Source: Nemertoderma westbladi (Eukaryota; Animalia; Xenacoelomorpha). From it: DNA of 32,383 bases. Shown in pieces: positions 3,385 to 30,118 of the stretch. The notes below the pieces were generated by a model, which saw only the letters and a program-made list of their open reading frames with translations, ran no database searches and was not told the DNA's origin. Positions within the stretch are counted from its first letter, which is position 1. Every line of letters starts with the position of its first letter. The DNA lies in the NCBI GenBank assembly GCA_032718475.1, contig JAUCBJ010005138.1, forward strand, positions 1 to 32,383. Reading direction: 5' to 3'. Position numbers and translations under genes: made by a program.

Positions 3385-3527
3385 ATGGACGCTAAATATG
3401 ACGTTGTAAAAGCTAAAGAAGCTGTAGTTTGGATGGAAGCAGTTACAGGCGAATCTCTAGAACAAAGTGATCCCATAGACCCACCAGATCTTAATGCGAA
3501 ACTTAAAAATGGCCAATATTTACTGAA
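3385..3527 (+). CDS. Transgelin-like gene, coding exon A (start of CH domain)
   Basis: ttttccctcag|ATG ... CTGAA|gtaagt; encodes MDAKYD...WMEAVTGE...LKNGQYLL. Confidence 0.9.
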
Positions 3528-6420
3528 GTAAGTCAAATTTGTATTGAATATTTACAGTAAAGTTAGTATTGTAGGCCTACCGGTATACTTACATATATCG
3601 GCCACACCATTAGGTGTGTACACTACCCGGTTAAAAAGGTACGCATGTGATGGGATTAGTCCTTGCGCCAATAAAAGATAAGTTATTTTCGGTAAAACCC
3701 CTAGATCCCTTCCTATAATAAATGTATAATAACAAACACCTCGAAAAACTCAGCTTGCCAACACACATTGTTACTATCAATAATAAAAATCAGGGGCTAA
3801 TAAAATGGCAGCTGGCTTTGAAATTAATACTCCATATCTCAAGAACCTGTGGCCTAGTGGTTGTTGATAATAATAACTTAGAAATAAAAAATAAATTTTA
3901 ACTAAATAAAATAAAATAACTTTTAAAAATAATAATTCCAATAAAAATTACGCGATTCCTAAATTTGTACACTACCCGGTTAAAAAAGTACGCATGTGAT
4001 GGGATTAGTCCTACAATTGCGCCAATAAAAGATAAGTTATTTTCGGTAAAATAAACTTATCATTCGAGGTTAAGACCCCTAGATCCCTTCCTATAAATGT
4101 TATAACACCATTAGGTAGGATTCATAGCCACTTACCAAAACACCTCAAAAGTTTGCGATCAGAATTTGTAAATTCCCAAAGCAGTACCTTTTGGTCATGG
4201 TTTGGTTATATAGGGGAGGGGGGGGGGGGGGGGGGGGGTCTCTTGGTTGACCTACCAATCAAAAGTAATATCTCTCTAACCTCCATTGGAAAATTGTTGC
4301 CAATAACAAACTGTTTTATTTGTAAACTGCGCAATTGACATTAATTTATTGTTTTGGTTAGAAACGTCAAGTTCAAAGGTAGCGGTGGCTGTCAAGACTA
4401 ATTAGTTGTTAATAAGGTAGCGGTGGCTGTCAATAAAGGTGAGAACGTCTTATGTTGGTGCTAGAGTATATCAGTACAACGTAATACAAGTAAATAGAAA
4501 CGGGAATTTGTTTCTATGAACATACATCACAACATATTCATTTATTTTATATATAACCTAACCTTTCCCGAAGATATATCCACCACTCTGACTTCTTGAC
4601 ATTGTATTCATATCATCATTGTCGGAGTCGCCATGGATTGAGAGGTTGTCCACATGGTCTAACATATTATTAATATCGGAGGTTGACTTTGAGTATTGAG
4701 ACGAGGTTCTACTTAAGGGTCTTGTATCGCGCTCCTGGTATCCATGGTAGTTGAATATGCCTCTACCACTGGTGGCGTTGGGCTCCTTCGTCTGCCTTTG
4801 ATATGAACCTGTTGCTATAGGAACCGGTGTCTCTGAATAGTTCTCCTTCCATCCGTTCGATTGTGTCTCGCTACTGGAGTCGTGCAACATTTCCTGGCTC
4901 CTAGCAACCAGTGAGTGTCTCCCGCGGTAAATGGAACCCATGTCGGACTATTCAGTTTCTACATGGCTAATGTGCCAATGTTTGTTAAAAACTACCTGAA
5001 ACAAATATATTCAAAAAGCGTTATTAACTTATGCATCAATTTCACTGTAGGCCTAACGTTAACTTAACCAACGTGGACGCATATGGAGTCTGTAAAGGGT
5101 CAAAATATAAATAAATAAAAGCATCTATGAAACAATAAAAATACATCCAAAAATTACTGCAGTAATAAATATTTGTTACTCGGCCACTTAGTTTGTATGC
5201 ACAGAAACGGTTTACATGCTTATATGCAAAAAAACGTATAATAAACAGGGAAGAAGTTAGTTGTTTTAATTAAGGCGGCGGTAAAATGCACATTTAATTG
5301 GATAGATTGTATTCTATATTATTATTACATTACATCATATTTAATTACACTAATTATGATTAATTTAGAGTCATCAACATTATAAACCCCGAAAAGAAAG
5401 TGAAAATTAATACAAAGAACACAGCGTTCCAAGAAAGGGAGAACATTGAGAACTTTAACAAAGCCATTGAGAAGTATGGAGTATCGCGTGCTGATGCGTT
5501 CCAGGTGGTTGACCTCTACGAAGCTACAAATAAATGGGCCGTCATATCTACTATACACGCGCTCGGCCGAGCTGTGAGTATCCACACTGGCGCCATCAAC
5601 TGTACTGATGTAGCCGGTGGCACAGGCGAAAATGCCCCCCCCTCGGGCATTTTCGCCTAGCGCCACAAGCCACCCAGATAATTTTCACCCCAGATTTCGA
5701 GAGTGGCGGTCCGAAACCCTAATTCAAAGTGAAATGGAGGCCCGAAACCCTAATTTAATCTGTTCGTGAAATATACTTTATGAAGGGGGGGGGGGGGGGG
5801 GGGCATTCCGCGCTGGGGGCGGATAAGCCTAGGACACCGGTAGGCACTATTATTAGCTTGTAAATTAAAAATTAAAAACTGTTAACTACATTTATAATAA
5901 TTTACACTGAGATGTTGTTATCTTAAACTTGATTTTATTTAATTTCATTTATTTTATTTTCCAGGCACAAAAGAATGGTTTTAATGGCCCTGTTCTGGGA
6001 CCCAAAGAGGCGACAGCACATGCTAGAGAATTCACAGACGAACAGTTAAAAGCAGGTATTATATATTAAACAGGTATAAATTGCCAGAGGTTTTTCTCTT
6101 TTTTAAAATGTGATTGTACAGTATGGTGAACTGCATACAACCATATCATAATCCATATTTCGGATGACAGGTACCGGTGAAATCAGACTTTACCAAAAAA
6201 AAGTCACGCACTATCAATGTGCACAAACGTACTTTTACGTCCCAAATTGTAAGTCTTTAATATTGTAATCACGTAATTCTTAATTACGGGTGGATTAGCA
6301 TGATGTGTTTCTGTCGCAGGTCAAACAGTGATAGGGTTGCAGGCGGGGACCAATCAGGGTGCATCGCAGGCTGGGATGAGCATGGGAAAAAGGAGGATGC
6401 CGACAACAGACCAGAAATAA
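3385..6420 (+). CDS. Transgelin/myophilin/calponin-family protein (one CH domain plus one calponin repeat), about 179 aa; exons 3385-3527, 5369-5573, 5965-6055, 6320-6420
   Basis: All introns are GT-AG and phases are consistent (2,0,1). Translation MDAKYDVVKAKEAVVWMEAVTGE...LKNGQYLLKVINIINP...FQERENIENF...YGV...FQVVDLYE...[23 protein letters not shown]...[36 protein letters not shown] matches family hallmarks. The ATG follows a CAG acceptor directly, so a further 5' exon probably exists upstream. Confidence 0.93.
3617..4098 (+). repeat. Direct duplication of a ~110-130 bp segment (copies at ~3617-3717 and ~3966-4098)
   Basis: Both copies share tgtacactacccggttaaaaa..gtacgcatgtgatgggattagtcct..tgcgccaataaaagataagttattttcggtaaaa..cccctagatcccttcctataa, with indels between them. 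Confidence 0.85.
4558..4941 (-). CDS. Nested antisense orphan ORF/exon, 127 aa, Ser/Thr/Asp-rich, probably disordered
   Basis: GC-richer than the flanking intron. Upstream acceptor tttgtttcag at ~4996; in-frame TAG just upstream of a strong-context ATG (gacATGG). It ends either at TAG 4558 with AATAAA at 4546-4541, or at a donor AAG|gttagg at 4563. Confidence 0.6.
   Translation of the reverse strand: MGSIYRGRHSLVARSQEMLHDSSSETQSNGWKENYSETPVPIATGSYQRQTKEPNATSGRGIFNYHGYQERDTRPLSRTSSQYSKSTSDINNMLDHVDNLSIHGDSDNDDMNTMSRSQSGGYIFGKG
5369..5573 (+). CDS. Transgelin-like gene, coding exon B (rest of CH domain)
   Basis: atttag|A ... GCT|gtgagt; encodes ENIENFNKAIEKYGV...FQVVDLYE. Confidence 0.92.
5614..5840. 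mobile_element. Small MITE-like insertion
   Basis: Imperfect TIR CCGGTGGCACAGGC / GCCTAGGACACCGG flanked by TAG on both sides; internal repeat ccgaaaccctaatt twice and a poly-G tract. Confidence 0.6.
5965..6055 (+). CDS. Transgelin-like gene, coding exon C
   Basis: ttttccag|GCA ... GCAG|gtatt; encodes [30 protein letters not shown]. Confidence 0.92.
6320..6420 (+). CDS. Transgelin-like gene, terminal exon (calponin repeat)
   Basis: tcgcag|GT ... TAA; encodes the calponin repeat [16 protein letters not shown]. Confidence 0.92.
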
Positions 6421-10989: not shown

Positions 10990-11530
10990 GAAGCTCAAAG
11001 CCAAAGCTTTGACCTTCAAGCTCAAAGTATGGTATGCTTGAGCATGTGGACGACTTCTGTTACCTTGGATCATGGATCCCGAAGTCAGGTGAGGACCTTC
11101 GAATACGTAAGGGGAAAGCATGGGCTGGGCTGCCTTGAATAGGCCTTCCATGATTTGGAAGTCAAGTAGAATTAATCGAAAACTTAAGGTCCGATTATTT
11201 AGAGCAGCAGTAGTTCCAGTACTCCTCTATGGGAGTCCATGCTGGGCTCTAACTGCTGAGGACACCAAATCTCTGGATAGCACATTCACACGAATGCTAC
11301 GCCGGGTTCACTGTGTCAAGTACAATGCACACATCTCCAACCAGACACTATATAACATTGGATGTGTCTCATTGGTTCCCCCAGGCTTGACACTAGAACA
11401 AAGCCGCCTCCGCTTTGCAGGACATTGCTTTCGCCATGAGGACCATCCAGTGCATAATATTGTGCTTTGGTGGCGTCATGGAGTGAATAAGCATGGTGGA
11501 CAGCCCATGTGGCTACAGCCACCCACTTGA
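10990..11530 (+). mobile_element. Degenerate RTE-clade LINE 3' fragment (RT thumb/C-terminus)
   Basis: Encodes HVDDFCYLGSW, then in another frame LKVRLFRAAVVPVLLYGSPCWALT...TRMLRR...SRLRFAGHCFR, motifs typical of the non-LTR RTE ORF end; frameshifted. Confidence 0.85.
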
Positions 11531-12228: not shown

Positions 12229-15200
12229 ATGTCATTAGCATCAGTATTACAGGTTGGTGGTACTAACAGGGACATATTGATATTTACGATTTTAGTACCA
12301 TTGGTATTTAATTATTATTTATTACATGTTCGCGAAATTAAAGCACCGGCGCCAGAGCTGAAACTCTCCTGCTGGTTTTCCTTACCTAAATACTTTTTTT
12401 TAGATACATACATAGGTAGATACAGGTAGTAAGACACAGCTACTATAGTAACAGAGGTCCCAGTGATTGCATAATTGCCTCTTTACCTGTTATTTTTGCT
12501 TTTTTTTATTCCAGATCTATTTGGGATGGGCTAACAGTGTACTGGCTGAGATCGGAGAGTCGTTAGCTAACATTGCAGAGTTGAAAGATGGACGCAAACT
12601 CTGCGCTCTTGTGGATATATTGTCGTCGTCCACTGACTTGGTAGACCGTTGTTCCACAATGTCCGCCTTGGATCGCGTAACAACTCTAATAGAATTCCTT
12701 AGAAGTAAAGAAATCCATCTAGATGTTGACCCCAGAGGTGAGTGAGAAGACCTAGCGAACACGAATATAAGTTGAGTCCGGCAGTTTATAGACAGGAAGA
12801 ATATAAAATAAAAGCGATACATAGCTGGCTGTTTATTTATTTGTTTATTTTATATTATATTTTATTTACTCAATTTAATTTAATGCCGTGCATAATATCT
12901 AGTACATTACATTATAGTTAGTATAACTTTCGTTGGGCACACCTTAGCAAAGTCGGCAATGGGATCGAACTGGTGACCTTCGGGTTGGAAGTCTGACGCT
13001 CTAACCATTCAGCTAGCGGCTCAGCCCTCACATCTGTCAATACCATCATCTGCTGCCACTGTGCTCAACCCTACCGTACTTGGCCGTCTTTAACCACTCG
13101 CTACAATGAAAGGGTAGTGTATATTAACCATGAACCATGACGGCCATAATGATTAATTATACATTCCCAACTACTAATTTAGGTAGGACAGTTACACCCA
13201 TAGAGAAATGCGACCGGTATATTTCTAATTTATTATTGGTAATTTTGGTGAATGAGTGGTTTCATATATTATATCTCTCATTGGGCACATATATATAGTT
13301 AGAGCGTCGACCATAGGCCAGCACGAGTACAGTATATAGTATGTATACCACCGACAATATTATGGATGATTTATTATTGTCTGAATGATCTAATCCGATT
13401 CTCTATTCACAATCCCTTCCATCGACTCCTCCGATATGGGGGGAGAGGGGGGGGGGGGGGGGGGGGCTCTTGACTTTAAATCAACCGAAATTCATCCTTC
13501 TCCAGGGGAAAATCGGTAGAGGTAGAATCCATCCATAGAGGTAGAATGCTGGAAATCATAAGAGCTTACGGAATACCAAAAGTAATTGTCGCTGGCATCG
13601 AACTGTTTTTTTGTGACAGAGGTACTCTCACCAGATGGTGAAACTCAGTTCTTCTCAATCCTGGCTGGCGTACTGCAAGGTGACACATTAGCACAATTAC
13701 TATTTGTAATTGTACTGGATTACGCAATGAGGACAGCCACAACCGGTGAAGATCTGGGATTCACACTTCAAGAACGCAGAAGTAGTAGATATCCGGCAAC
13801 TACAGTCACAGACACCGACTTTGCGGATGACATCGCCCTGCTCTCTAATACGCTAACAGATGCACAGCTTCTACTAAATAAAGTGGAGAGGGCTGCTAAG
13901 GAGGTTGGATTGCATATAAATGCTACCAAGACCGAATTAGACTTTAAATGTTAATGGAAACTTGACAGCAATCACTAATAATCAACTAAGGAAGGTCGAT
14001 GACTTCCAGTACCTTGGATCATGGATAGAGAGTAGCAAAAAGGATATAGAAGTTAGGAAAGCAAAGGCTTGGGTAGCTCTATCAAAAATGGATACCATCT
14101 GGAATACGGGACGTCATCTGGACATACGGGTACCACTAACTCAATCGATGTGTCTGTTGTTCTGTCGTTCTGGTTCTGTTGTGTTCAATTTTAAACGTTA
14201 AACGCAGCCAAATCTCGATAAAATCTATCAAACTTGGTACACATGTAGTCTGGCAAAAGTTTAGAAATTTTCCAAGTTGAATTTGCGTGTGGCCTTCGAG
14301 AAGTTAAGATAATAACAGTTAATTAATTAAATTAAAATTAATTAAGTTGGTTAGGGTAAAAACAGCATTTTCAACATGACTTTTAAAGGAAATTAATTAT
14401 TTTATTGTATAAGATGTAAATAATTATACTTAAAAATTATACTGCTGCTGTAATCTCCATACCCCCTTCCATTATAGTTTTTAATTAGTTCAAGTGATTT
14501 GGTTTAAGAAATGTGTTTCTAATTGATCTAAACGTAATTAACTGTGTGTGTGTGTGTGTGGCTTTATTCCTCTCTCTTTGATTTACTGGTGTTTGGTTAA
14601 ATTTCTTGAATACAGAGTTTGTGATACAGTAGAATCGCTCAATATTAATCTGTATCTCATAACTAAGCCTCGTGCTGCGCGAAGGCCCCACGAACGTGTT
14701 CTTTAGTGGAAAGTGTACTTTTATACGGGGGTGAGACCTGATGAAATCACTTGAACAACGAATTGATGGTTGATACACAAGACTACTAAGGGCAGCCCTA
14801 AACAACAGCTGGAGGCAACACATGACAATCGATGACCGAGCTCTATGGTAGTGTACCACTTGTATCAAATACCATCCGTGAATGCAGATTAAGATTCAGT
14901 GGACACTGACACTGCCGGATAAGTAAACATGAGGTCATACCAGATCTACTTTTCTGGCTAGCAACTCATGGAAAGCGTAGTCGAAAGCGTAGTCGTGAAC
15001 GACCGGCTATGACATGTATACAAACTTGAAAGGAATACTGAACTTGAGAGAAACGAAATTGCGACAACTATGGAGAATCAGAAAGCCTGGAAGGATCTCA
15101 TTTCCACTGTCCGAGCTCGCATGACCTAGTAATATTAGTCGACATGGGATCTGAGGGCGTCTTACCCCCTGCACAATTGCATCCCGTAATTGCCAAGAGA

Positions 15201-18200
15201 GATGAGCCTTCGCGGTGCCTCTTGTTGTGTTTAGTATTTCACGTTCTTCGACAACCTAACTTTACTTAACAACTATATAACTTCCAAAAATAAAGACAAT
15301 AACAAAATAGAAAATGATTTTTTTTCAAAACAGCAAAATGTTTATTTCTATTTTTAATAGTTCAATCCGCAAAATCATGTAAAAGATTTTAGGTTTGGCA
15401 AAATTACTTATATTGTGCAACACGACGTTTGTAAAGAACATGATATATAAACTATAACTAGTTACATAGTTACGGAATATATATCAAGTTACATTACGTT
15501 ACAAAATGAGTTTATATTTGTGAAATTAGTACAGCAAATTCTCCGTAATTCAAATTACCATCGCCATCTGAATCGAAGTCCTTAAAGAATTCATCCATTT
15601 CCTCGTCGGTGAAACAATCCCCCATCTCGGTGAGTGCTTTCCTCAGTTCGTTTCTGTCCAACTGCCCATCCTGATTCAAATCGAACTTCTTAAAACTCTC
15701 CAGTAACTCCTCTGGACTCACGGTCATTGTCGCACCCTGATCCCGAACCAAAGTAGTAAACTCTTCGAAGTTTAATTCTTTATCGGAGGAATCATCGTAT
15801 AAGTGCATGTAGTTGTCGACATCGGCTTTGGTGGGTGAAAGTCCCAAACATTGGAAACAATCCTCCAATTCTGCTACGTCGATTGTCCCACTGTTATTCG
15901 CATCGTGTGTCTCAAAAACTTCCTTAATTTCCTCGTCAGTGGCTGCAGTCATTGTTAAACGCTGTGTTATTATTTAATAATTTCTACTAAAATAAAAATC
16001 AATTTATCAATATTATGATATTCGAATTACTTAATTGACTTGGCGGCAATTGGCGACCGACGAATATAATTGCTAATAGTTTGTTGTTGGTACTATGGCA
16101 ACGGCTATTACCTGCCAGTGGCAGTACCTACTTGGTTCAAGTTGAACTGCAGGTGTAAGTGTAACCCTGATAGGAGAATCGCAACCACACCATTATTCAA
16201 ATAAATCGTTTGAAGATACGGCTCCTTTCCCATAACATGCTATAGAGGGCTATAAGATTATTAAAGTAATACAACATAAAGTTATGGTTTTAGCAACAAC
16301 GAAAATTGTATTTTGTTGGTTTATCTGCTGTTCCTGATGTATTGTTACAATCTCATCAGTATTGTGTCTTAAAATTCAAGTCCCCTAACCCCCGTTCCAA
16401 CCCCCTAAATTTTTCACAAATCTTAATGAGTAGGAATTGCATGAAATTTAAAATAAGATCTTTAGCATCCATATTTTCAGAGGGTGAGGTTTTGTTTTAA
16501 TTGGTGACTCATTTCGATTCGAACTTATATTTACTTACTGAAAACTTATTTTGTCGACTCCAACCTCCAAGGATTAGATTATCTTCCAGCAGCTTACTAA
16601 GAAAGCTTTGCACAAGCCTAACAGCACTGCCATTGTTATTCTTTGGATGTTTTTTAAGGTGATGGTTATGGTGCATATATTTCAAAGTAGAGGTGTACTA
16701 TAGAGAGAGATACACTAATTGTTGACTTCTCTATATAAGGTGTGAAAAAATGCATATTTTAACTAAGTTCTATGAATAAATTAATCTACTATTCCCTGTG
16801 AAAAATAATTTTAATTTAAATGTGAAACCTTTATTTCTTGGTTAAATAAATCAGGTTGGCTTGCTAATCAATTATACGATAAATAAAAACAATGATATAA
16901 ATACTGTTTAATTGTAAAATAACTTTTCTGAATATTATCGAATAATTACAATCAGAAATTTTTCCGTATAAGCACAGCAAAGCAATACAATAAAATTAAA
17001 TATTTTAAAGAAATTATGAATGGTTTCCTGCAAGAAAAGTCAATTTAAACGTTCACGTCTTTAATAAATATTGAGTCCTTTCAACACGCTCGTTATGAGA
17101 GTGATTAACTAATATTCGGGATTTATAAGCTGATCAGCGCCAATCCAATAATTATATACCAAGTCTATTTTTACACCAGTACTTCTACTTTTTCGTAGTC
17201 TTGCATTTTGATGCCGAAGGACCGTCGATGGATGTCTCTGTCTGCACCGATACGATAGACTTACGGTCCTTCCGGTTGCGAAATGATGCCATCATTCTAT
17301 TAACACTCAAATGCAAATTATGAGATTGTGGATTGCGTCTTAGCGGTCCGGTTGGCAACAAGTGTCTGATTTTCAACCACGGATGATTCAGAACTTCGGT
17401 AGCAGTATGTCTTTCTTTGTGATTCACGTGCAACATACGAGAAATTAAATCTACAAAGTGATCTGTCGCGTGTTCCCAATGGTTGCGCTGAACTTCAATA
17501 TTGTAGTCCCCGGAAATAATCCTGGCAAAGATGGATCGCAGATCGTCCTCCTCGGAAATAGGGAATGGCGTCCGACCGGAGACCAAAACACAAAGAAGTA
17601 TGCCAACACTCCATATGTCCCACGCCTTTTCAAAACCATGATCGTCTCTCATTTCAGATGCGGCATGTTTGGCAGTGTACGATGTTGTCATCAACAAACC
17701 GTTTTCTGCGCGTAACTGTTTTGCAAATCCAAAATTGCAAATTCGAAGAGATGCTGGTGCTCGAGATTTATCTTTAAACATTATATTACTTAGGTGTATG
17801 TCTCTATGTGTAATACCGTGATCATGGAGGTATTCCAACGCCCCTATTAACACGTGCGTTATCCCTGCAACTTTCTTTTCAGAGTGATGTTTTTCGTGAG
17901 TAATATAGTTTAGCAAGTCGCCTCCTTCCATGATTTCCATTACAAGCAAGACTTGCTCCCCGTGGTCAAATAATTCAAACAATGTTACTATATTTGGGTG
18001 GTCATGGCCGACACGTTGCAATATGTTAACTTCTTCCGAAGCAACTTTCATTGTTTTGGCCATAACTTTTACGGCATAGCTACTACCAGTATACTTATCA
18101 ATACATTTATAATAAACACTTTCTGATCCTCTACCAAGTTCGCCTTTGATACGGAACTGTTTAACGAATATAGCAGGAAAGCGCGTGTGTTCTCGGGGTA

Positions 18201-21082
18201 TAGAGTCTTCCTCCACGGGATAATTAAAAGTTGTCTTAACTCCAAAACTGAATCCTCTGAAAAGGTTGTTAACACTTGGTCCAGCATCGGCTCCTCTTGG
18301 TATATTGGTCTTTTGTTTCATCGGTTGTGAATCTTGGGGGGTCGGTTTATATGGGGGCTTGATATCCTTGGCGTACAGTCGTTCCCAGCAGATGTTGTTA
18401 AAGAACTTGTGATCGCGGACCCTGGCAACACCACCACTACCCTCTCGTTCGGACACGGCCTTATCTTCAGCCTCCGGTTCATCTACGGCATCGTAGTCAT
18501 CCCCAGAATCGACTAAGTCTTCGCTGAAGTCATTGAAGTCATATCCCAGTCGGTTTCTCGGAGTCTTATTCAATATACAACGAAAAAAACTGTTAGCTTC
18601 TGGGGATAAACATCTTGGCATTGGAAGCTTCATTTCCTTTATATTCTGCACAGTTTCATTTCTATCCGTCCCACGAAACGGATAGAATCCTACAATAATC
18701 TCGTAAAAGACAACGCCGAAACTCCACCAGTCTGCCATATGTGAGTAGAAACTACGTGTGAAAACCTCTGGTGCAGTGTATTCCACCAAACCACTGAACT
18801 TGCTGAGGTTGAACTCTTCATCTCCAAAGTCATAAAAATTACACACAGCTTTACCACAAAGTAAAAAGTCTGCTAGTTTCACATGGCCATCAGAGTCTAG
18901 GAGTATTTTGTCGGGTTTGAGATCACGGTAAAAGACCCCAAGACTGTGTAAGTGTTCTAACGCCAGGACAACTTCTGCCATATAGAATTTCGCATCTTCT
19001 TCCGTAAACATAACCGCTTGAGATAGTTGAGTGTGCAATGGCCCTCCTTGTTGATAATCCATTACCAAAAACAGATCACCCAGGGTTTGAAATCCATAGT
19101 GCAGACCAACAATGAAAGGATGATGGATATTCGCTAGTATATTCTTTTCGGAATTAATTCTGATGATATCAACAATCTTTATAACCGCTTTCTTTACTAC
19201 TTTCATTGCATAAAGCTTGCCTTCATCGTCGCCTGTAAGTCTTCTTACAAGGATGATCTTACTAAATGATCCTTCACCGAGGTTTCTTATGAGGTCGTAG
19301 TGAGATTCATCAACATTCTCTTTGTTTTTCTTGAGAAGTTCGTCTGTTACTTCGACTATTTCCCCTTTGTCTTTGTGGGATAAACTGAACCTTCTGTCAC
19401 TTGTATCCACAGCCTTGCTGCTTCTTTGTTTTTGACACAAATTTTGCTGTAATTCATAGACGTGATGTGCAATAGGCATCTTAATCCAGGGTATATAAAT
19501 GTAAATATTATATGTATTGTAACTTAGGGATATTAATTATTGTAATTATATTTAGAATTAATAAATTATTATAAAAATATTTAGAGCAATTTTAAGAGTC
19601 ATGTCTTAGATCAGCCTTAGATATGTAGAGGTCTTACAAAATATACCCATAATGGCAGTATGGTCGAGAAGTTTTATAAATATCATAAAAGGAAGAGGGA
19701 GATAATACCGAATAATAGCGTGAGCAAGGTTTCGTTTGTCATCATATTACGTGTTGAGCGGCATGTTGGGTATGTATGGCTCGGTTACGACACCCAAGAT
19801 GTGTGTCCATACTATGGCTCAGCACTACAAGACGGTCAGCACGTTTTAACGAATTGTGAGCTAACTTATGGATTACCTAATAACTATTTATTAAGCCTAC
19901 ATATGATATGAAACAAATATATTAAATATCAAATATATTTTTCCCGCTGATCCTAGTTGTATTTATTCCCGAGTGAGCGCCAGCGAGACAGGGTAATTAT
20001 ACATAATATAAGGGATCATAAGGATAAAAAGCTATTTGTTTTCATCTAATTTTATTCCAGAAAATTTCCCATCCACCTCCCCTTGCTCACCATAGTATTG
20101 GTCGCACTTCGCTTCCAGGTAGTCCAGTAGACCTAATTACCAGAAATTCAACGACTTGCACTTCTGACTGAACGGATAGCAGTGTACGTCAGTAAGAACA
20201 GAACACTGCCCTTGATACGTCAGCCGTTGTTAGGATAAAAATTACCTTTGATGTACTTCCACTCAAGTATTATTTGTAGGCAAAAAAAGTCCCAAATAAA
20301 TAAAATTCGGAATAAATAATGTATTTACTGTAAGACTTTTGTATATTATATTTGTGTGTCTGTTACACTTATTGGACTAAGCTCCATTCCCGCCGATACA
20401 AGTAGGTATAGTGTGTGTTTTAATAGGTTTATAATTTATTGTACCGCTACTGATATTCAAACAATGTAATTAAAAGCGTGGTCGTTAAACGCAAATACCA
20501 TAAAATACTCCATATAATATGCCAAGCGATCTAAGATTAGTGTTGGAAGACAGTCAGTCCAGACAGTAGGCCTACCGGCATTCAATAGACAATTCGACAT
20601 AAGTCTACATTTTTATCTGAGTTTGTCTTGTGTGCTTTAATTAATTATGGCCGTGACACCGCCAGTTTGAGAAAGAATACACTTGATTAATTCGAATCAA
20701 ATAATGTACACAAATATTATTAAATTAAAAACAGCGATCTTATCGAAAAGACATTAACGACCTGTGTCAGTGGCGATGTGACTTAGAAGATACTATAATT
20801 ATAAACAAACCGATTTGTAAAAAAATGTAATATAATTACTAACTCGAGTATCTATATGTGAGACAGGGGTGTAAACTAGACGCAAATCCCATCTTGGCGA
20901 ATTAATATCCCGCCTCGATGTTAAATTCACAATTTAGGGAAAGGAGCTGGTTACAGTGGCACGTTATTTTAACCAAAACAATAAACTAAACACAATAGAA
21001 GAGGTTACAGTTTTATTTTTGAGAGTAATCAGATGTTATTTGCTTATAATTTCCCCTGGAGAGAGATTTTTTATTGCGTCCA

Positions 21083-21114
<32 letters not shown>

Positions 21115-24100
21115 TATATATTGTATATTACGGAGCCCCTAAAGGGACATTAATATTTATTTTCCTCAGCGGCTGTTTACGGTGACTTCAAGGCTCTCAT
21201 GGACATCATGTGGTCGCTGATTATCCACGGTACTGTCCACTCATTGGACAGACCGGCCCCACAGCGGACACTAAGGATTGGGAGACGGTTGCTACTAAAC
21301 TGGGCGTCCAGACAGACGTCAACAATCCGATTAGATTACAAAAGGAGTTTATCGGAAAAGTAAGGAAACCGCGAGAATGTATATCTTACGTCCCAAATAA
21401 ATAGTGAATCCATCCATTGTATGGGCACTAATAGATGTTACCGGTACTGCCAAATTTATATTACACTTCACGTTTTGTGAACGTTTTATGAGTGCAGGTC
21501 GCAACCCCAACTAGAAATGTACTGTACTTATTATACCAATACGATCATATGACTTGAGGTTTAATTGATATATTTTAGTAAAGGTTCAGTTGGAAAATGC
21601 CTTTAGGAGGAAAAAATTAAATGTTATTCGTTGTTAATTAAATTATTATTCGAAAATTATAATAATAATACGAATAATAATAATAATACGAAAATTATTC
21701 GTTGATAGTTAATTAAAGTGAGATCATCAATCATTTCATTATTATTAATTCATTACTTTAATCAGATAATATCAGGATAAGAGTTATTAATTTCAACCAA
21801 TACCAATAATAATTTCTGTACTGCAGGGAAATAATATTATTTTTCATCATCCTCCATCCGTGAAATAATTATTTATGATTATTTATATATTATATATGTC
21901 TGTAGTTTCGCTGACAACGACGCGCTGTCGGTTCTAATCTCTCAGTTTTGTCCGTTCCGGCCGGTGAACGAGGCGACTCCCGATAAACTCACGATGAATA
22001 CCACCAACGCGTTACTAACAGCTGATCACTCGCTACACATATCCAGGGATATACTCGATCCAGCCGCCGTTATTAAGGGAAACAGTGAAGAATATGCCTT
22101 AGCTTTATATTTAGGTTAGTACTTTATATTATGGTTGCACTTTATATTATGGTTACGTACTTTATATTATGACAGTGATATATTATGTTATGGTTATACT
22201 TTATATTATGGTTGTTCTTTATGAATCAGTTTTTACTTTGTATCCTTCACGTGTTCATCCCATTAACATAATGTTGTTGCTCCAATTTCAAACCTGGAAA
22301 AAGGGTTACTTAATTTTAATAAGTAAAAGTTGACTTAAATATTGTGGAGCGAGCGACGAAGTAAGCTAACTTCAACCGTGTCCATCAGTCTGTTTGTGAC
22401 TTGATGCTAATAACTTATCAATCCTCGATTAAATTAAACCAAACTTGGTACTCATGTAGTCTTTCATGGGTTCATGGGGGATCAGAAGTTCTACAGTCTC
22501 CCACTAGAAGGGCCATGCTTGCTTGCTACTTCCTTCGCGGAAGTCCCACGAACAAATAAACAAATAGTACCGGTAGGTCATATTAAAGTTGCCGCTTGTA
22601 TTTTGTGTAGCGTTATTGAAAAGGAAAACTACTATTCCAACCAATAACGGTTCAGGTGCTTCCAATAATAAACATGACAGTAAACTAGCCAATGGGGACA
22701 GAGTATTATTAGCATCTATGGGGGGAAGGACAACGGCAGAATTGGTGAGTAGACATACTTTCAGTATCAACAAAAAAAATTTCTAAAATTTTTTGCAAAT
22801 ATTTTTCAATTACGAAAATGACTACCTCTCCGTAAATTTAAAAATTGCAGATAGGGGGGACTCTTGGCGTAGGTATTAATAGACGCCTCCAGCAAAAAAT
22901 ATACTTATTGTCGAAAAATGAGTTATTGCTAAAAACCAATAACGCTTAAACTTCAACATTTTTTAAGTTAAATTAACTTCAAGTAGTAGTTAAGAATAAT
23001 TATCACACTTTAATTGATATAATAAATGATTTGTATTACTGTACTACCACATGTTGTACAATATGCATTAAAATCTACATTAATGAGCCATCACTCTGCA
23101 CCAACCCCACCAATCTAACAATAATAATTATTATATCACACAATAAATGATTTGATTTCTAGGGAGTTATACCGGAGCATATTGAGGTCGTGCGTGTAGC
23201 TAGAGATGCAGTTGTCGATGTTAGTAACGACTCTATGGACGACACGACCATAAAGTAAGTACCTTTATAATACATAATAAATTAATATAATATTAAGTCC
23301 CCCCCCCCCATCTTAATTTTTATGAACTGCTGTATGTATAGCCTCATTACTATTTGTCTATAAATCTTTAGGTCAGCCGAGGTCGATAGCGCCTTCCATA
23401 CGGAGAACTCTGAGGCGTTAACAGAACAAATGACGCCGAGCAAACGCCAAAAACTGAGTCTACAGAATACAGCACCGGCTGCAATAATGGTTACCACTGA
23501 GAACCAAGGTAACGTTATTATGAGATGCAACATAGCAGTAAGCAAAATAAAAATGCGATACAAAATAACTTAATCTTGTTAATTAAAGTTATTCTGGAAA
23601 TCTGAGTATTATATTTTAGCAAAAATACTTTATTCAAAACTTAAAATGTTATTTATTGCAGATTTCTTTTCGTCGTAAAATAATGTAGGATGCGGCGATA
23701 ATCGAGGTTTAACATTACATTACTCATCGCAGCAAAGTTATATTTAATCAATAATATTATATTCTTCAGATGATGAATCAACAATTGATGACGATTTTGT
23801 CAACATTGATAATTTATTGTGCGGGATCCCCGATGCTGAAAGTCGCAATAATGTTGAGGAGACAGTTGTAGAAGAGGAAAAAGAGGAAGAAGACCTTGTT
23901 AGACTTGATATTCATCGTAACGATACCACAGACGTTATAGACGATAGTGTAGACGGTGGTAAACCCGAGAATAAATCGGGATTCTTATCCAAAATAATAC
24001 AGAGTTTCGAAAGAAAAAAGGAGCCAAGTGGGGCAGAAACAGGGAAGGTTTCACCTGCAAGGAGACGCCGTGAATTAAACAAAAAAAATAGAGCGAGAGA

Positions 24101-25331
24101 CGGAACTTACGTTGTCAATGCGGAGGGTAAGCCGAGTGCGGGACGTAGGCGGGACCAGACGTACGTGGTGGAGGAGACGGGTGTATCTACGGAGACGGGT
24201 GTATCTACGGAGACGGGTGTATCTACGGAGACGGGTGTATCTACGGAGACGGGTGAACCCAAGGGAGAGGCGGGTCGACCCAATGAAGAGGCGGGTCGAC
24301 CCGGCGAGACAGTGCCTGTCCCTGCGGAGACAGCGGGTCACCAACAGAGAGAACGCAACCCTGAGACTGTTGTTTCGGTCTCTGGTGCGGATAAAACTGG
24401 TGCGGACGGGAAGAAAACTGAGAATAAAGTGGACTCGGATCCGACTAAGTTTATTTACGGCCGGAGGGAAGATTCCGGGATATCGAGCGACCGCGAGGAC
24501 TCCGAGGTAACTCGGGAGTCGTCAGCGGTGCATGATACACCGACGGAGAAGCACCGGGCACCGGCGGTGGGATCCCGACCAACAACGGTGAAACCCACAC
24601 CGCCGGTGATGCGATTCGCGCCTCCAGTCGTGACAGAGACGATCCCGGAAGAACGAACACCTACGCCGCACACGGCGGATCGGAAGCGAGCTAAAGAATT
24701 CCGAGTTGGACCCCGGACTAACCGACGTTCAACCTACACCGTAAAGGAAGTTGCAGACGGGCGGCAAACTGCGTTAGTGTTCGGTACCGCAGGGGTCAAA
24801 CCAAATGAGAAAGTGAAGAAACCTGTTGACAAGGTGGAAGAGGAGATAGTAGAAACGAGGGAGGAAAAGGGTGAAGCAACCTCCAGGTTCGCAACCAAAG
24901 TGATAAGATATGTCCCTCCTGTGTCTGCCTCACAGACCGGCGACCCTCAGGTGTCTGTCCGACGGACGTCTCTCCCCCAGACGTCTACCCCGCTACGGGA
25001 CCAACACAAATCCGAATTAGTAATCAGCGATGGACCAGAACAATCAGGAACTACAGGACAGTCGCATGGAATCAATCAAGTTATGTAAGTGAATGTATTT
25101 GTTTACGAATAAATAAGGATACTGTTTAATGTTTTGGTCCACCGCCTAATCATATAAAATAGGCTACTAATAGAAAAGACTGAACGACTAGTAAATATTG
25201 GAAGTTTAACAAATATGAACAAAGTTCGCAATAATTTGAACAAAATCATCATTGCAGATGCCATGCATAAGAACAAAGTTCGAAAGTGGAGGAAAAAAAA
25301 TTCGCAAATAATTACCATCACAAGGAACTAA
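12229..25331 (+). CDS. Divergent tandem calponin-homology (CH1-CH2) actin-binding-domain protein with long disordered C-terminus, about 830 aa; exons 12229-12252, 12515-12737, 21170-21359, 21906-22114, 22611-22744, 23163-23254, 23372-23508, 23770-25084 and tentatively 25163-25331
   Basis: All junctions are GT-AG with consistent phases (0,1,2,1,0,2,1,2), giving one continuous 2493-nt ORF. CH1: IYLGWANSVL...ELKDGRKLCALVDIL...AVYGDFKALMDIMWSLIIH. CH2: LLLNWAS...ENFADNDALSVLISQFCP...NALLTADHSLHI...ILDPAAV...EEYALALYLALL. The last exon is uncertain. Confidence 0.8.
12515..12737 (+). CDS. Tandem-CH gene exon 2 (CH1 N-terminal part)
   Basis: ttattccag|ATC ... AGAG|gtgagt; WAN and LKDG motifs. Confidence 0.88.
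12955..13022 (-). mobile_element. tRNA-derived SINE head or tRNA pseudogene
   Basis: The minus strand reads tagctgaatggttagagcgtcagacttccaacccgaaggtcaccagttcgatccc, with Pol III A-box and B-box; no convincing acceptor stem. Confidence 0.7.
13530..15130 (+). mobile_element. 5'-truncated degenerate RTE-clade LINE, split by an insertion at ~14110-14690
   Basis: RT motifs GVLQGDTLA..LF.IVLDYAMR, DFADDIALL, GLHINATKTE, VDDFQYLGSW. After the insertion: VESVLLYG, YTRLLRAAL..SWRQHMT, RLRFSGH. Contains stops and frameshifts. Confidence 0.9.
15512..15952 (-). CDS. Calmodulin-like 4-EF-hand Ca2+-binding protein, 146 aa, intronless CDS, nested antisense
   Basis: EF loops DANNSGTIDVAE, DDSSDKELNFEE, DLNQDGQLDRNE, DSDGDGNLNYGE with calmodulin spacing (LGLSPT, FKKFD, EMG..FTDEEMDE). 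Possible 5'UTR acceptor at ~15988; minus-strand AATAAA at 15346-15341. Confidence 0.93.
   Translation of the reverse strand: MTAATDEEIKEVFETHDANNSGTIDVAELEDCFQCLGLSPTKADVDNYMHLYDDSSDKELNFEEFTTLVRDQGATMTVSPEELLESFKKFDLNQDGQLDRNELRKALTEMGDCFTDEEMDEFFKDFDSDGDGNLNYGEFAVLISQI
17185..19479 (-). CDS. RPS6KA: Intronless p90 ribosomal S6 kinase (RSK)-like protein, 764 aa, two kinase domains, both with degenerate catalytic motifs
   Basis: RSK signatures: [58 protein letters not shown], hydrophobic motif [30 protein letters not shown]. The gene symbol denotes the family only; this is a divergent paralog. Confidence 0.93.
   Translation of the reverse strand: [764 protein letters not shown]
21170..21359 (+). 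CDS. Tandem-CH gene exon 3 (end of CH1, start of CH2)
   Basis: ttcctcag|CG ... GAAAA|gtaagg; encodes GDFKALMDIMWSLIIH...RRLLLNWA. Confidence 0.87.
21906..22114 (+). CDS. Tandem-CH gene exon 4 (CH2)
   Basis: ctgtag|T ... TTAG|gttagt; encodes FADNDALSVLI...ILDPAAVIKGNSEEYALALYL. Confidence 0.87.
22120..22215. repeat. Short ~19-20-bp tandem repeat (actttatattatggtt), about 4-5 copies, just after the exon 4 donor
   Basis: Directly visible. Confidence 0.75.
22611..22744 (+). CDS. Tandem-CH gene exon 5
   Basis: ttttgtgtag|CG ... TTG|gtgagt; supplies the phase 1-to-0 bridge needed between exons 4 and 6. Confidence 0.78.
23163..23254 (+). CDS. Tandem-CH gene exon 6
   Basis: tttctag|GGA ... ATAAA|gtaagt; only one frame is open. 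Confidence 0.78.
23372..23508 (+). CDS. Tandem-CH gene exon 7
   Basis: ctttag|G ... CAAG|gtaacg; encodes SAEVDSAFHTENSE...TPSKRQKL. Confidence 0.8.
23770..25084 (+). CDS. Tandem-CH gene exon 8 (1315 nt, low-complexity E/T/R/P-rich)
   Basis: ttcttcag|AT in frame with the 423-aa ORF; GC-rich coding composition; ends GTTAT|gtaagt, or reads through to TAA at 25088. Confidence 0.85.
24174..24254 (+). repeat. Coding 18-bp minisatellite GAGACGGGTGTATCTACG x4.5, encoding (ETGVST)n
   Basis: Perfect copies, in frame within exon 8. Confidence 0.95.
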
Positions 25332-26733: not shown

Positions 26734-27204
26734 TTAATAAATAAATAATATTTTTTTATATTTCAAATTACGTAATTTTTTAAGAAATTTATCTTTATAA
26801 AATTTTATTTATTAACATATCCAAACCAATAAGTGTTATAAAGAGGATATAATGCAGAGGTAGAAGAGGTGGAACTACTTGCGCCAGCGGTGGTGTATTT
26901 AAGAATGAAATTGGGTCGAAATAACTTTGGTTTGTGGTAGGAGCAGAGGAAGGCCCCGTATGTATAACATTTTTCGATGTACCAGTATATATTTTACACT
27001 ATTATATGTTACTAACATATTATATATAATATACTGTATTTATAGGTGACCGTCTTCAAACTTAATAAGTCTTCGTGAGCTTTAATATCGTATTAATTAA
27101 GTCAGTAATTTATTTACCATGGTATATATAATATATACGCCTATATAATATTAATAAACTGCTTATAATATCTTTATAGGAAAACGAGGTGAGAATGAGG
27201 ATTG

Positions 27205-27740
27205 TTGATGGACCAGTTTGTATAATCTCGTTGATGGACCAGTTTGTATAATCTCGTTGATGGACCAGTTTGTATAATCTCTTTGATGGACCAGTTTGTA
27301 TAATCTCTTTGATGGACCAGTTTGTATAATCTCGTTGATGGACCAGTTTGTATAATCTCGTTGATGGACCAGTTTCTATATACTAGTTGATGGACCAGTT
27401 TGTATAATCTCGTTGATGGACCAGTTTGTATAATCTCGTTGATGGACCAGTTTGTATAATCTCTTTGATGGACCAGTTTGTATAATCTCGTTGATGGACC
27501 AGTTTGTATAATCTCGTTGATGGACCAGTTTGTATAATCTCGTTGATGGACCAGTTTCTATATACTAGTTGATGGACCAGTTTGTATAATCTCGTTGATG
27601 GACCAGTTTGTATAATCTCTTTGATGGACCAGTTTGTATAATCTCGTTGATGGACCAGTTTGTATAATCTCGTTGATGGACCAGTTTCTATATACTAGTT
27701 GATGACCAGTTTCTATATACTAGTTGATGGACCAGTTTCT
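27205..27740. repeat. 26-bp tandem repeat GTTGATGGACCAGTTTGTATAATCTC, about 20 copies
   Basis: Directly visible periodicity; variants ctctttgatgg and tttctatatactag. Confidence 0.95.
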
Positions 27741-28252
27741 ATACTTGTAGCTGGACCCGTTTATACTCGTTTATACTTGTAGCTGGACCCGTTTATACTC
27801 GTTTATACTTGTAGCTGGACCCGTTTATACTCGTTTATACTTGTAGCTGGACCCGTTTTTACTCATTGCTGGACCCGTTTATACTTGTAGCTGAACCCAT
27901 TTGCCTTTATACTCATTGCTGGACCAGTTTATATTTATACTTGTGCTAAATTCGGTTATACATGTAGCTGGACCCGTTTATACTCATTGCTGGACCCGTT
28001 TATATTTATACTTGTGCTAAATTCGGTTATACTTGTAGCTGAACCCTTTTATACTCATTGCTGGACCCGTTTATATTTATACTTGTGCTAAATTCGGTTA
28101 TACTTGTAGCGGAACCCTTTTATACTCATTGCTGGACCCGTTTATATTTATACTTGTGCTAAATTCGGTTATACTTGTAGCTGAACCCTTTTATACTCAT
28201 TGCTGGACCCGTTTATATTTATACTTGTGCTAAATTCGGTTATACTTGTAGC
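27741..28252. repeat. Related 32-bp repeat (about 3 copies) grading into a 71-bp repeat (about 5 copies)
   Basis: atacttgtagctggacccgtttatactcgttt has period 32; tactcattgc recurs at 27910, 27981, 28052, 28123 and 28194 (period 71). Confidence 0.92.
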
Positions 28253-30118
28253 TATTTCAAATTGTAGTCAAGTTGTAGTTAATTCTGTTTTAATTAAATA
28301 AGCATACTAGCAATAAGCATTTTCATATTTCGATTATTCCGCTATAATATATTATAAAATTGGTTCATAAAATTTCAAACGTTTCAACTAAAAAAAATAA
28401 ATTTAATTATCATGTCGTTATTCAGGTACCTGCCCCCCAAATTTTTCTACGATATTTTATTAACTTAAAGTAAGTTTTAAAGTTAAAGCCGTTAAAGCAT
28501 GGTTATAGTTCTGGGAGATTGGGAGAGTAAACATTGCGTATACAATGCATCATAAAACCTGCGTATTTACCGCTTTTAATAAGCGTAAATAGTGTGTAAA
28601 ATGTGAGTAAACATTGCGTATACGATGCGTAAAATCTGCGTATTTCTCACTTGCAATTGTGCGTTTTTTGAATGTTTATTACGCATATAAACCACCTGCG
28701 AAAAATATGCGGTATAAACACACAAAAAAAGTCAAAGCGCGTATTAAACACGTGCGTTTCGCACATTTCACACCGTCACATTTTCTTTTGTTCTCCGCAC
28801 TAAAAACGCAAAGCGAAACGCACGCGTATCGCACTAAATACGCACTGCGGAAAATGTGCGTTTGACACACTGGGTTTAAGGGAATATTAATTTGGTTAAC
28901 AGATTTTGCATAAGAAAATTAAGTTATTATCAAAATTATTATTATTATATTCAGAACTTTTCAGAAGCTTTTATCTGGGCCTATTTCAGTATAAATATCG
29001 TCCATCGAAGCTTCTTCCACAGTGAAATACGGGCATTACTATACCTTTGGGTACCACCTGCCCATTGTTTAACCAATTTTTTTCATATAAAAAGGCTTTT
29101 ATCATTAGGTTTTTTTCCTAGAACAAATATTTGACCTTCTGACAGTAGTATGGTATTTTTTTCAAATACATGTTCTAGAAAAAAATGTGTTCTAGAATAG
29201 AAATATTTATCAAAATTAAACAACACTGTTCTACACACGGTAACATTTATAAAAAAGTAGAAAAATCTACCTTGTATAAAAAATATAAAATGTGTTCTAA
29301 AACAAAGTGTTCTAGAACAAAAATATTTATAAAAATTGATAGCTAACACGTGTTCTATAACATTTATAAAAAAAATTAGCAAAAATAATATTAGAAATTA
29401 TCTATTTAATCTATTTAAATGCAATGTTATTATTAATGTCATGGAAACATTACTTTTTGTATTGACAGAAAAAGTGCTCTTTTTATGTCAAACTTGTTAA
29501 CGACTTTGACTAAAAAAAAACTTAAAACAACAAATAAAAGACATTTTGGCGCCCTTTTCGGATGGCGCCCAGGGGAAAGTAACCACCCCCCCCCCCCCCC
29601 CCCCCAATAGCTACGCTTCTGTAACTGCCCTTGTGGAAGACCTGGGTAGAACCCATGCAACATTGCGAACCAACTAGTCGATTTCCCGGCCTCAGTACTC
29701 AAACTTAGACCGGATAATGGGCCGGCAAACAGATAATGGCAATGGGCCGGCAAACAGATAATAGGTTTTCACAAATTGCGTGGTCCAATGGGTAAATGAC
29801 AGGTGGCACCTCAGTCCATGAGTCACTGCATATAGCCCAGTATGAGACGATCACGATATATTCACGATATTGTTCTTTGGCATCCCTATAAGACGGGCCT
29901 AATACCTCCCGAGTATGTTAACCAATTTGTTTGTTCGTTGAGAATATCCGCCCTATATACATACATCTAATGGGGTTCCAAAATTATAATTATTTATTAC
30001 ATGGGAAAAATTAGAACATTTTTTCACTATTCTCGAGGCATTTTAGTTACCGATCGTCAGCGAGGTTAATAAAGGGACGAGAGAATATTGAAAAAAAGGT
30101 TTGTTTTTTTCCATATTA

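Follow-up and report, generated by a model that had tools for sequence, protein, structure and literature searches.

The contig JAUCBJ010005138.1 of Nemertoderma westbladi (assembly GCA_032718475.1) was analysed over its whole length of 32,383 nucleotides, referred to here as the window, and carries on its minus strand an open reading frame derived from p90 RSK (RPS6KA1/2/3/6; invertebrate RSK), one of the most conserved two-domain kinases. This frame, which we call the RSK copy, probably encodes a selected, folded and non-catalytic derivative of RSK, a reading that we hold with reasonable, not high, confidence and that draws on sequence comparison and structure models. The frame and its two kinase domains are located as follows.

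17185..19479, minus strand: RSK-derived open reading frame, intronless, 764 codons (translation; single tblastn high-scoring pair with the canonical RSK P0113, 42% identity)
18400..19299, minus strand: N-terminal AGC domain, residues 61-360 (structure-profile matches, alignment, AlphaFold/Foldseek)
17374..18162, minus strand: C-terminal CAMK-type domain, residues 440-702 (structure-profile matches, alignment, AlphaFold)

On translation the frame gives 764 aa with zero internal stops, so that the uninterrupted frame claimed in the original prediction is borne out. The N-terminus MPIAH resembles the MPLA/MPFA start of canonical RSKs, which indicates that the entire ancestral coding sequence is present. 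Pfam detects two kinase domains and no other domain, and the closest solved structures are the N-terminal domains of RSK1/2/4 and the C-terminal domains of RSK1/2; an AGC domain and a CAMK-type domain in one chain is the p90 RSK layout. AlphaFold modelling, a check that had been proposed at the outset, builds both kinase domains (mean pLDDT 70.0 against 73.6 for the canonical control P0113), and by Foldseek the modelled N-terminal domain matches RSK2 with a TM-score of 0.90-0.93 by target length. A maximum-likelihood tree was made of 33 N-terminal domains, namely 17 RSK, 8 and 5 that we take from their motifs to be MSK-like and S6K-like, 2 other AGC kinases and the RSK copy, and in it the RSK copy groups with RSK, not MSK or S6K, with a support of 100/100, in agreement with the RSK derivation first proposed. 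With a terminal branch of 1.7, where the median is 0.35, its position inside the RSK clade is unsure. Two further marks of the family are present, the FxxFSF hydrophobic motif of the linker and an RSK-type C-terminal activation segment.

The divergence is large. Identity to 19 RSKs is 49-54% in the N-terminal and 35-47% in the C-terminal domain, whereas rat RSK3 (P0113) and arthropod RSKs share 85-86% and 71-73% in the same columns. No orthologue is found among the matches listed from three protein searches: the best 120 of 4200 matches have 37-43% identity and the named ones are all canonical RSK, the best 150 cluster representatives (50% clusters) are headed by a lobster RSK with 47% identity, and for the shorter matches (120 of 298 listed) the best identity is 55%, over 29% of the query. 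An exact-sequence look-up gave no match, a metagenome scan confirmed 0 of 94 pattern matches, and an Atlas search returned generic kinase clusters only. Also, none of the 83 proteins in our motif table (83 of 270 retrieved) shares its set of changes.

The RSK copy sits antisense within an intron of another gene, the relevant parts of which are the following.

12738..21169, plus strand: host intron, GT-AG, phase 1, 8,432 nt, in a tandem calponin-homology (CH) gene of actinin/utrophin type; the flanking exons join in phase
12515..12737, plus strand: host exon, first part of a CH domain (matches utrophin 10-77, E 0.13, weak alone)
21170..21359, plus strand: host exon, continuation of the CH domain begun by the preceding exon (matches utrophin 86-134, E 0.89, weak alone)

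The two exons match consecutive parts of utrophin in order (10-77, 86-134), which points to one CH domain split by the intron; the first of them also matches actinins and filamins. Introns of ordinary type are retained in the neighbouring genes, including an upstream myophilin-like gene. As the RSK copy is a full-length intronless coding sequence at a new site, as is typical of a retrogene, and lies antisense in the intron of another gene, it is likely to be a retrocopy. The setting is consistent with the RNA-mediated duplication into introns described for nested genes of Drosophila in PMC5174743, where nested retrocopies are reported to be fast-evolving.

All motifs quoted in the original prediction were located in the translation where it had placed them. 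Those of the N-terminal domain, found by motif look-up (the catalytic loop also by alignment), are given here with its activation segment.

19261-19278, minus strand: Gly-loop GEGSFS
18907-18930, minus strand: catalytic loop YRDLKPDK, Lys at the metal-binding Asn171 position
18862-18870, minus strand: DFL at the DFG position
18766-18804, minus strand: PDK1-site segment SKFSGLVEYTAPE
18766..18870, minus strand: activation segment with DFL, an insertion of 6-7 residues (214-219), the PDK1-site Ser replaced by Lys and GT changed to GL

The domain retains K93, E111, D186, K188 and D204 (the beta3 Lys, alphaC Glu, HRD Asp, catalytic-loop Lys and DFG Asp). Four other residues are altered, namely N191K, G206L at the DFG Gly, S227K and T231L at the P+1 Thr, all at positions that are invariant in 12/12 RSKs and at which none of the 10 divergent comparators has changed. 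These 10 keep all 7 N-terminal catalytic residues and the Ser, and include five MSK-like kinases as distant from the RSK consensus as the RSK copy (57-65% vs 60%), with 7/7 catalytic residues in each and the T-loop Ser in 5/5. In 612 of the 614 catalytic loops caught by pattern in 427 other proteins the Asn171 position is Asn; of the two exceptions one is a Thr, and the other, a Lys, lies where an internal duplication in P0003 is joined. A second, out-of-register DFG occurs at 217-219 inside the activation-segment insertion, and we do not favour it as the true motif, as the AlphaFold model, which puts strand 200-202 ahead of DFL, and the alignments keep DFL in register. The Ser at the third Gly of the Gly-loop, initially counted as a sign of inactivity, has to be dropped from that list, since the RSK P0126 has the same Ser beside an intact set of N-terminal catalytic residues, and RSK C-terminal domains normally carry it.

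By the classical rule as set out in PMC4718504, a pseudokinase has lost the VAIK Lys, the HRD Asp or the DFG Asp. The N-terminal losses lie at the Asn171, Gly186 and Thr201 positions, outside this triad, and K93, D186 and D204 are kept, so that of the double pseudokinase originally proposed only the C-terminal half (D582N, see below) follows from the rule. From N191K, DFL, T231L and the loss of the PDK1-site Ser, the N-terminal domain is likely to be poorly catalytic or non-catalytic.

The corresponding rows for the C-terminal domain, by motif look-up except for the run, which comes from a run test, are as follows.

17785-17808, minus strand: catalytic loop HRDIHLSN
17728-17736, minus strand: NFG at the DFG position
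17686..17733, minus strand: activation-segment run of 16 residues (583-598), identical to canonical RSK and ending at the ERK-site Thr
17674-17688, minus strand: TTSYT, the ERK-site segment
17653-17661, minus strand: ASE at the APE position

Here K471, E483, HRD and N565 are retained, and K562H, D582N, P599T and P608S are the changes. K562H removes the catalytic-loop Lys. With D582N the DFG Asp is lost and the classical rule applies, in line with the pseudokinase claim for this domain; among the retrieved proteins, 147 others show the activation-loop signature of the RSK C-terminal domain, and every one of them has Asp at this position. The change of TPCYT to TTSYT was read correctly, but the ERK-site Thr itself (T598) is kept and it is the +1 Pro that is lost. 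The 16-residue run has a permutation P of 0.0012 within the domain and 0.0036 over the whole protein, both values being post hoc. Changes in this domain are not peculiar to the RSK copy: at least one C-terminal catalytic change is present in 4/10 divergent comparators and also in P0161, and single ones are found in P0124 and P0126. In the RSK/MSK-like proteins P0132, P0139 and P0161 the N-terminal catalytic set is intact and the C-terminal one degenerate; they are either natural half-dead RSKs or gene-model errors.

These comparators bear on the first alternative, that of an atypical active kinase. Its N-terminal domain would need at most one Mg, as Lys191 would take the place of the second ion, and would not need phosphorylation by PDK1, for which the acidic DEE residues of the longer activation loop would substitute; it would be switched by S411 of the linker and uncoupled from ERK, and only the C-terminal domain would be dead. 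Proteins with degenerate C-terminal beside intact N-terminal domains (P0132, P0139, P0161), and those with single changes (P0124, P0126), fit such an arrangement, as do the retention of K93, E111, YRD, K188, D204, APE and both conserved Gly-loop glycines and the presence of LYAMKV and YRDLKP among the longest identical runs. In work cited by PMC5382568, TRIB2 is said to autophosphorylate in a metal-free manner. A truncated RSK2 without the C-terminal domain is described as active via MK2/3 (PMC4295372). Against this, the four N-terminal changes fall at sites invariant in 12/12 RSKs and unchanged in 10/10 divergent comparators, and the Asn171 position is Asn in nearly all loops (612/614). We regard an active kinase as unlikely, if still a serious candidate.

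The changed codons also speak to the reliability of the sequence and to a further alternative. Two base changes per codon are needed for G206L (TTA), T231L (TTG) and K562H (CAC), so these are not isolated sequencing errors. The RSK copy could be the sole RSK of the species, having either lost its introns at its original site or replaced its parent, and have degenerated because ERK-RSK signalling was lost or rewired, or its message could be A-to-I edited. The N582 codon is AAT, one A-to-G change from Asp, and the gene is antisense to the host pre-mRNA. However, A-to-G editing cannot restore the canonical residue at K191, L206, K227, L231 or H562, and for a sole RSK the retained introns of the neighbouring genes and the antisense intronic position, which fits insertion, are unfavourable, and we hold either version to be very improbable.

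Selection on the frame was judged by proxies that need no close relative. When the coding sequence was mutated neutrally to 70% aa identity, which is about the level retained at RSK-invariant sites, the mean number of stops was 13.7, with at least 3 stops in 300/300 runs and 0/300 stop-free; even at 90% identity only 2/300 runs were stop-free. Of the 184 sites invariant in 12 RSKs, 55 (30%) have changed, and the changes are conservative (mean BLOSUM +0.20 vs a null of -0.62 +/- 0.23; 0/2000 null runs as high), with a weaker signal in the C-terminal domain alone (P ~ 0.03). Fold residues are kept in 27/28 cases (P = 0.0006 vs the 70% background) and catalytic ones in 9/14 (Fisher P = 0.011), and all indels relative to canonical RSK preserve the frame. 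These proxies suggest that most of the divergence took place while selection maintained a folded protein but no longer its catalysis, which supports, for most of the divergence, the selected frame assumed in the original prediction.

It may be noted that stop codons alone limit a recent neutral phase to ~0.03 substitutions per site. This matters for the alternative of a retrogene that was once constrained and is now dispensable or recently dead, with no stop or frameshift yet, the kept motifs being relics. The very long branch, the lack of an orthologue among the matches listed and a catalytic loss equal to the background loss at invariant sites are in its favour, and so is the fast evolution of nested retrocopies in Drosophila as given in PMC5174743. 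Nevertheless, a wholly neutral history is rejected by the stop and BLOSUM simulations, a neutral phase of at most ~0.03 substitutions per site compares with 30% of invariant sites changed, the indels are all in frame and the start codon matches the ancestral one. A dead retrogene is distinctly unlikely in our view.

The surfaces by which RSK is regulated were compared next to the catalytic residues, and three regions are of relevance.

18244..18264, minus strand: hydrophobic motif LFRGFSF, intact; S411 corresponds to RSK2 S386, the PDK1 docking site (alignment, run test)
17188..17316, minus strand: alphaL helix (722-739 in the model) and tail without the LAQRR ERK-docking motif (AlphaFold, motif scan)
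18619..18636, minus strand: DDVF-docking loop, KAKLGM changed to EMKLPM with K284, L285 and M287 kept (alignment; PMC8812568, PMC10248553)

In the canonical relay as outlined in PMC9941302, ERK acts on T577, the C-terminal domain on S386, PDK1 docks and S227 follows. The original prediction held this relay to be broken, and we agree, as the ERK docking, the +1 Pro of the T577 site, both linker ERK S/T-P sites and the S227 equivalent are lost. The LAQRR motif was rightly called unrecognisable, nothing like it being present after the alphaL helix, and the equivalent of RSK2 S227 is K227, with S226 and S229 nearby. From the lost docking motif and S/T-P sites, the best reading is that the RSK copy is uncoupled from ERK. 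The stretch RNRKDRKSIVSV of the tail, which reads as a forward MAPK D-motif, was rejected as evidence since 48% of shuffled tails match the pattern. Motif scans of the other retrieved proteins revealed neither a PDK1 nor an ERK. Around the vanished S/T-P sites the LFRGFSF motif is intact, a 7-residue linker run with a permutation P of 0.0012, a post hoc value in a gappy linker alignment. The AlphaFold model is uninformative on its docking, pLDDT being < 50 there in the canonical control P0113 too. This docking motif and the intronless nested position had been overlooked in the original prediction, of which the RSK origin, the selection, the C-terminal verdict and the cut relay stand and the N-terminal pseudokinase verdict was overstated.

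In the DDVF groove 6/14 positions are identical (W252, F268, K284, L285, M287, R300) and K282E, G286P and K304N are altered. The residues matching K284, L285 and M287 are described in PMC8812568 as the most critical for DDVF binding, and some of the basic SPRED2 contacts listed in PMC10248553 and PMC11984722 are altered. Adjoining the groove on its C-terminal side is the following insertion.

18445..18543, minus strand: acidic in-frame insertion of 33 residues (313-345), absent from 12/12 canonical RSKs compared, low pLDDT

The insertion contains acidic-aromatic words, and as a speculation it might occupy the DDVF groove in cis.

How a selected, non-catalytic RSK copy might act can be sketched in steps, all conditional. 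Lys191 would fill one of the Mg sites, and the outcome would be either nucleotide binding without a cation or a locked pocket; according to PMC4718504, Asn171 is a cation binder, STRADalpha with His200 there has ATP bound without a cation, and TRIB1 with Lys210 there binds no nucleotide. S411 would be phosphorylated in trans by an MK2-type kinase or by canonical RSK, without ERK docking; in dendritic cells, MK2/3 are reported to phosphorylate RSK2 S386 in trans, with the C-terminal domain and the ERK site dispensable (PMC4295372). Phospho-LFRGFSF would then engage PDK1, or fold onto its own N-lobe as a conformational switch. As there is no activation-loop Ser acceptor, the relay would stop after PDK1 docking, and the RSK copy could act either as a competitor of canonical RSK for PDK1 or as a PDK1 scaffold. 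The docking decoy step, for which we argue from motif retention and analogy, is tentative and leans to the doubtful side. In its fullest form it would be a dedicated PDK1 trap, with both domains dead but folded, the ERK input gone, the docking motif turned on by a p38/MK2-type kinase in trans and the target Ser removed, so that docked PDK1 is never discharged; we consider such a trap unlikely. If true, it would be a natural dominant-negative that couples stress signalling to the shutdown of PDK1-dependent AGC kinases, and a decoy mode of which there are few pseudokinase examples and of which none was found in the RSK family.

Several points weigh against a selected non-catalytic protein and its decoy role. 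The N-terminal domain retains all three classical catalytic residues, and the beta3 Lys, alphaC Glu and HRD Asp are retained in both domains. The catalytic loss of 5/14 is not above the 30% background (P = 0.41), which indicates release from constraint and not targeted inactivation. The residue classes and the runs to be tested were picked with the sequence already in view, the alignment of the linker is not secure, and selection was judged by proxies in place of dN/dS, no orthologue being among the matches listed. A very recent loss of function, of less than ~0.03 substitutions per site, is possible. The hydrophobic motif may be kept merely to pack on its own N-lobe, the pocket of which still has Q131 and K112 (for Arg). 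We take BRAF N581 to be the same Asn as Asn171 and assume the other BRAF equivalences to the positions of the RSK copy. In PMC4619530 BRAF D594N and G596R are listed as impaired and N581S as intermediate, so that residual activity of the N-terminal domain is possible. Also, decoy pseudokinases are rare according to PMC8141879.

Among known systems, p90 RSK is the one to which the RSK copy belongs by its AGC and CAMK layout, MPLA-type start, hydrophobic motif, C-terminal activation segment and alphaL helix. It differs from p90 RSK in the altered metal-binding residues of both domains, in the absence of the PDK1-site Ser, ERK S/T-P sites and ERK docking motif, and in being intronless and nested with two insertions in the N-terminal domain. 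RSKL1 and RSKL2 (RPS6KC1, RPS6KL1), whose names point to RSK, are, as we understand them, pseudokinases of a separate family with PX/MIT domains and no second kinase domain, whereas the RSK copy has only kinase domains by Pfam and groups with true RSK, in a tree that lacks RSKL rows. With TRIB1 and STRADalpha the likeness is in working only and not in membership: a basic residue is found at Asn171 and TRIB1 keeps the beta3 Lys and HRD Asp (PMC4718504), but both are single-domain proteins of other kinase groups with the DFG Asp replaced (SLE, GLR), which the N-terminal domain of the RSK copy keeps. KSR3 of non-chordate metazoans is presented in PMC10322840 as a catalytically inactive paralog in the ERK pathway, and like the RSK copy, a putative paralog, it comes from invertebrates and has lost part of its upstream input. 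It is, however, a widespread RAF-family allosteric activator upstream of ERK, whereas the RSK copy is an RSK derivative downstream of ERK, from one genome. Viral MLKL, described in PMC8141879 as a non-phosphorylatable trap for RIPK3 and one of few decoy cases, shares the proposed logic of an upstream kinase bound without an activation-loop acceptor; it is viral, of an unrelated pathway and experimentally shown, whereas the PDK1 binding of the RSK copy would be deduced from its motif.

Pseudokinases make up 7-10% of animal kinomes (PMC5290486, PMC4718504), and in PMC5290486 both domains of C. elegans rskn-1 and rskn-2 are annotated as functional. Lineage-restricted pseudokinase paralogs are already known as a kind, and a fast-evolving nested retrocopy is ordinary. 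What is unusual is the family and the pattern of loss, as no examined comparator has lost N-terminal catalytic residues. Among the papers listed by searches of the openly available literature, no RSK with both domains disabled was found, and the pseudokinase reviews PMC7586955 and PMC8141879 contain zero mentions of RSK. The retained PDK1-docking motif, C-terminal activation segment and DDVF-groove core are RSK surfaces that may matter without catalysis, and the RSK copy offers a natural construct for kinase-independent RSK functions and for metal-free nucleotide binding with Lys at Asn171 in an AGC kinase, its reach being that of one genome known from sequence.

Around the RSK copy, two further features lie in the same intron.

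16830..17065, minus strand: candidate poly(A) signals, ATTAAA 120 nt and AATAAA 350 nt past the stop of the RSK copy (AT-rich region, weak)
15512..15952, minus strand: EF-hand frame, calmodulin-like, intronless, 146 aa (Pfam)

The EF-hand frame shares the strand of the RSK copy, is 1.2 kb downstream of it, and has a candidate splice acceptor immediately 5' of its ATG. The host gene (12515-25088, plus strand) consists of a divergent tandem CH region of actinin/utrophin type, after which comes a long acidic exon of low complexity (23772-25085) that contains a coding repeat of 18 bp at 24173-24255; a third host-gene exon searched against PDB gave zero matches. Upstream, a myophilin/calponin-like gene has four exons (3385-6420, plus strand), and in its first intron an unrelated 127-codon open frame (4558-4941, minus strand) ends at a donor-like site and is possibly an exon of an interleaved gene. 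A search run with a myophilin exon to narrow down the lineage yielded 0 of 30 candidates. A 25-bp satellite of 79 copies lies directly upstream of this gene, and 26-, 32- and 71-bp arrays are present further along (1315-3285, 27204-28253). A decayed fragment at 11120-11530 (plus strand) resembles the end of a non-LTR retrotransposon, with a weak DUF6451 match below the cut-off, and a similar decayed fragment with stops, judged by eye, is present in the host intron at ~13520-14110 (plus strand).

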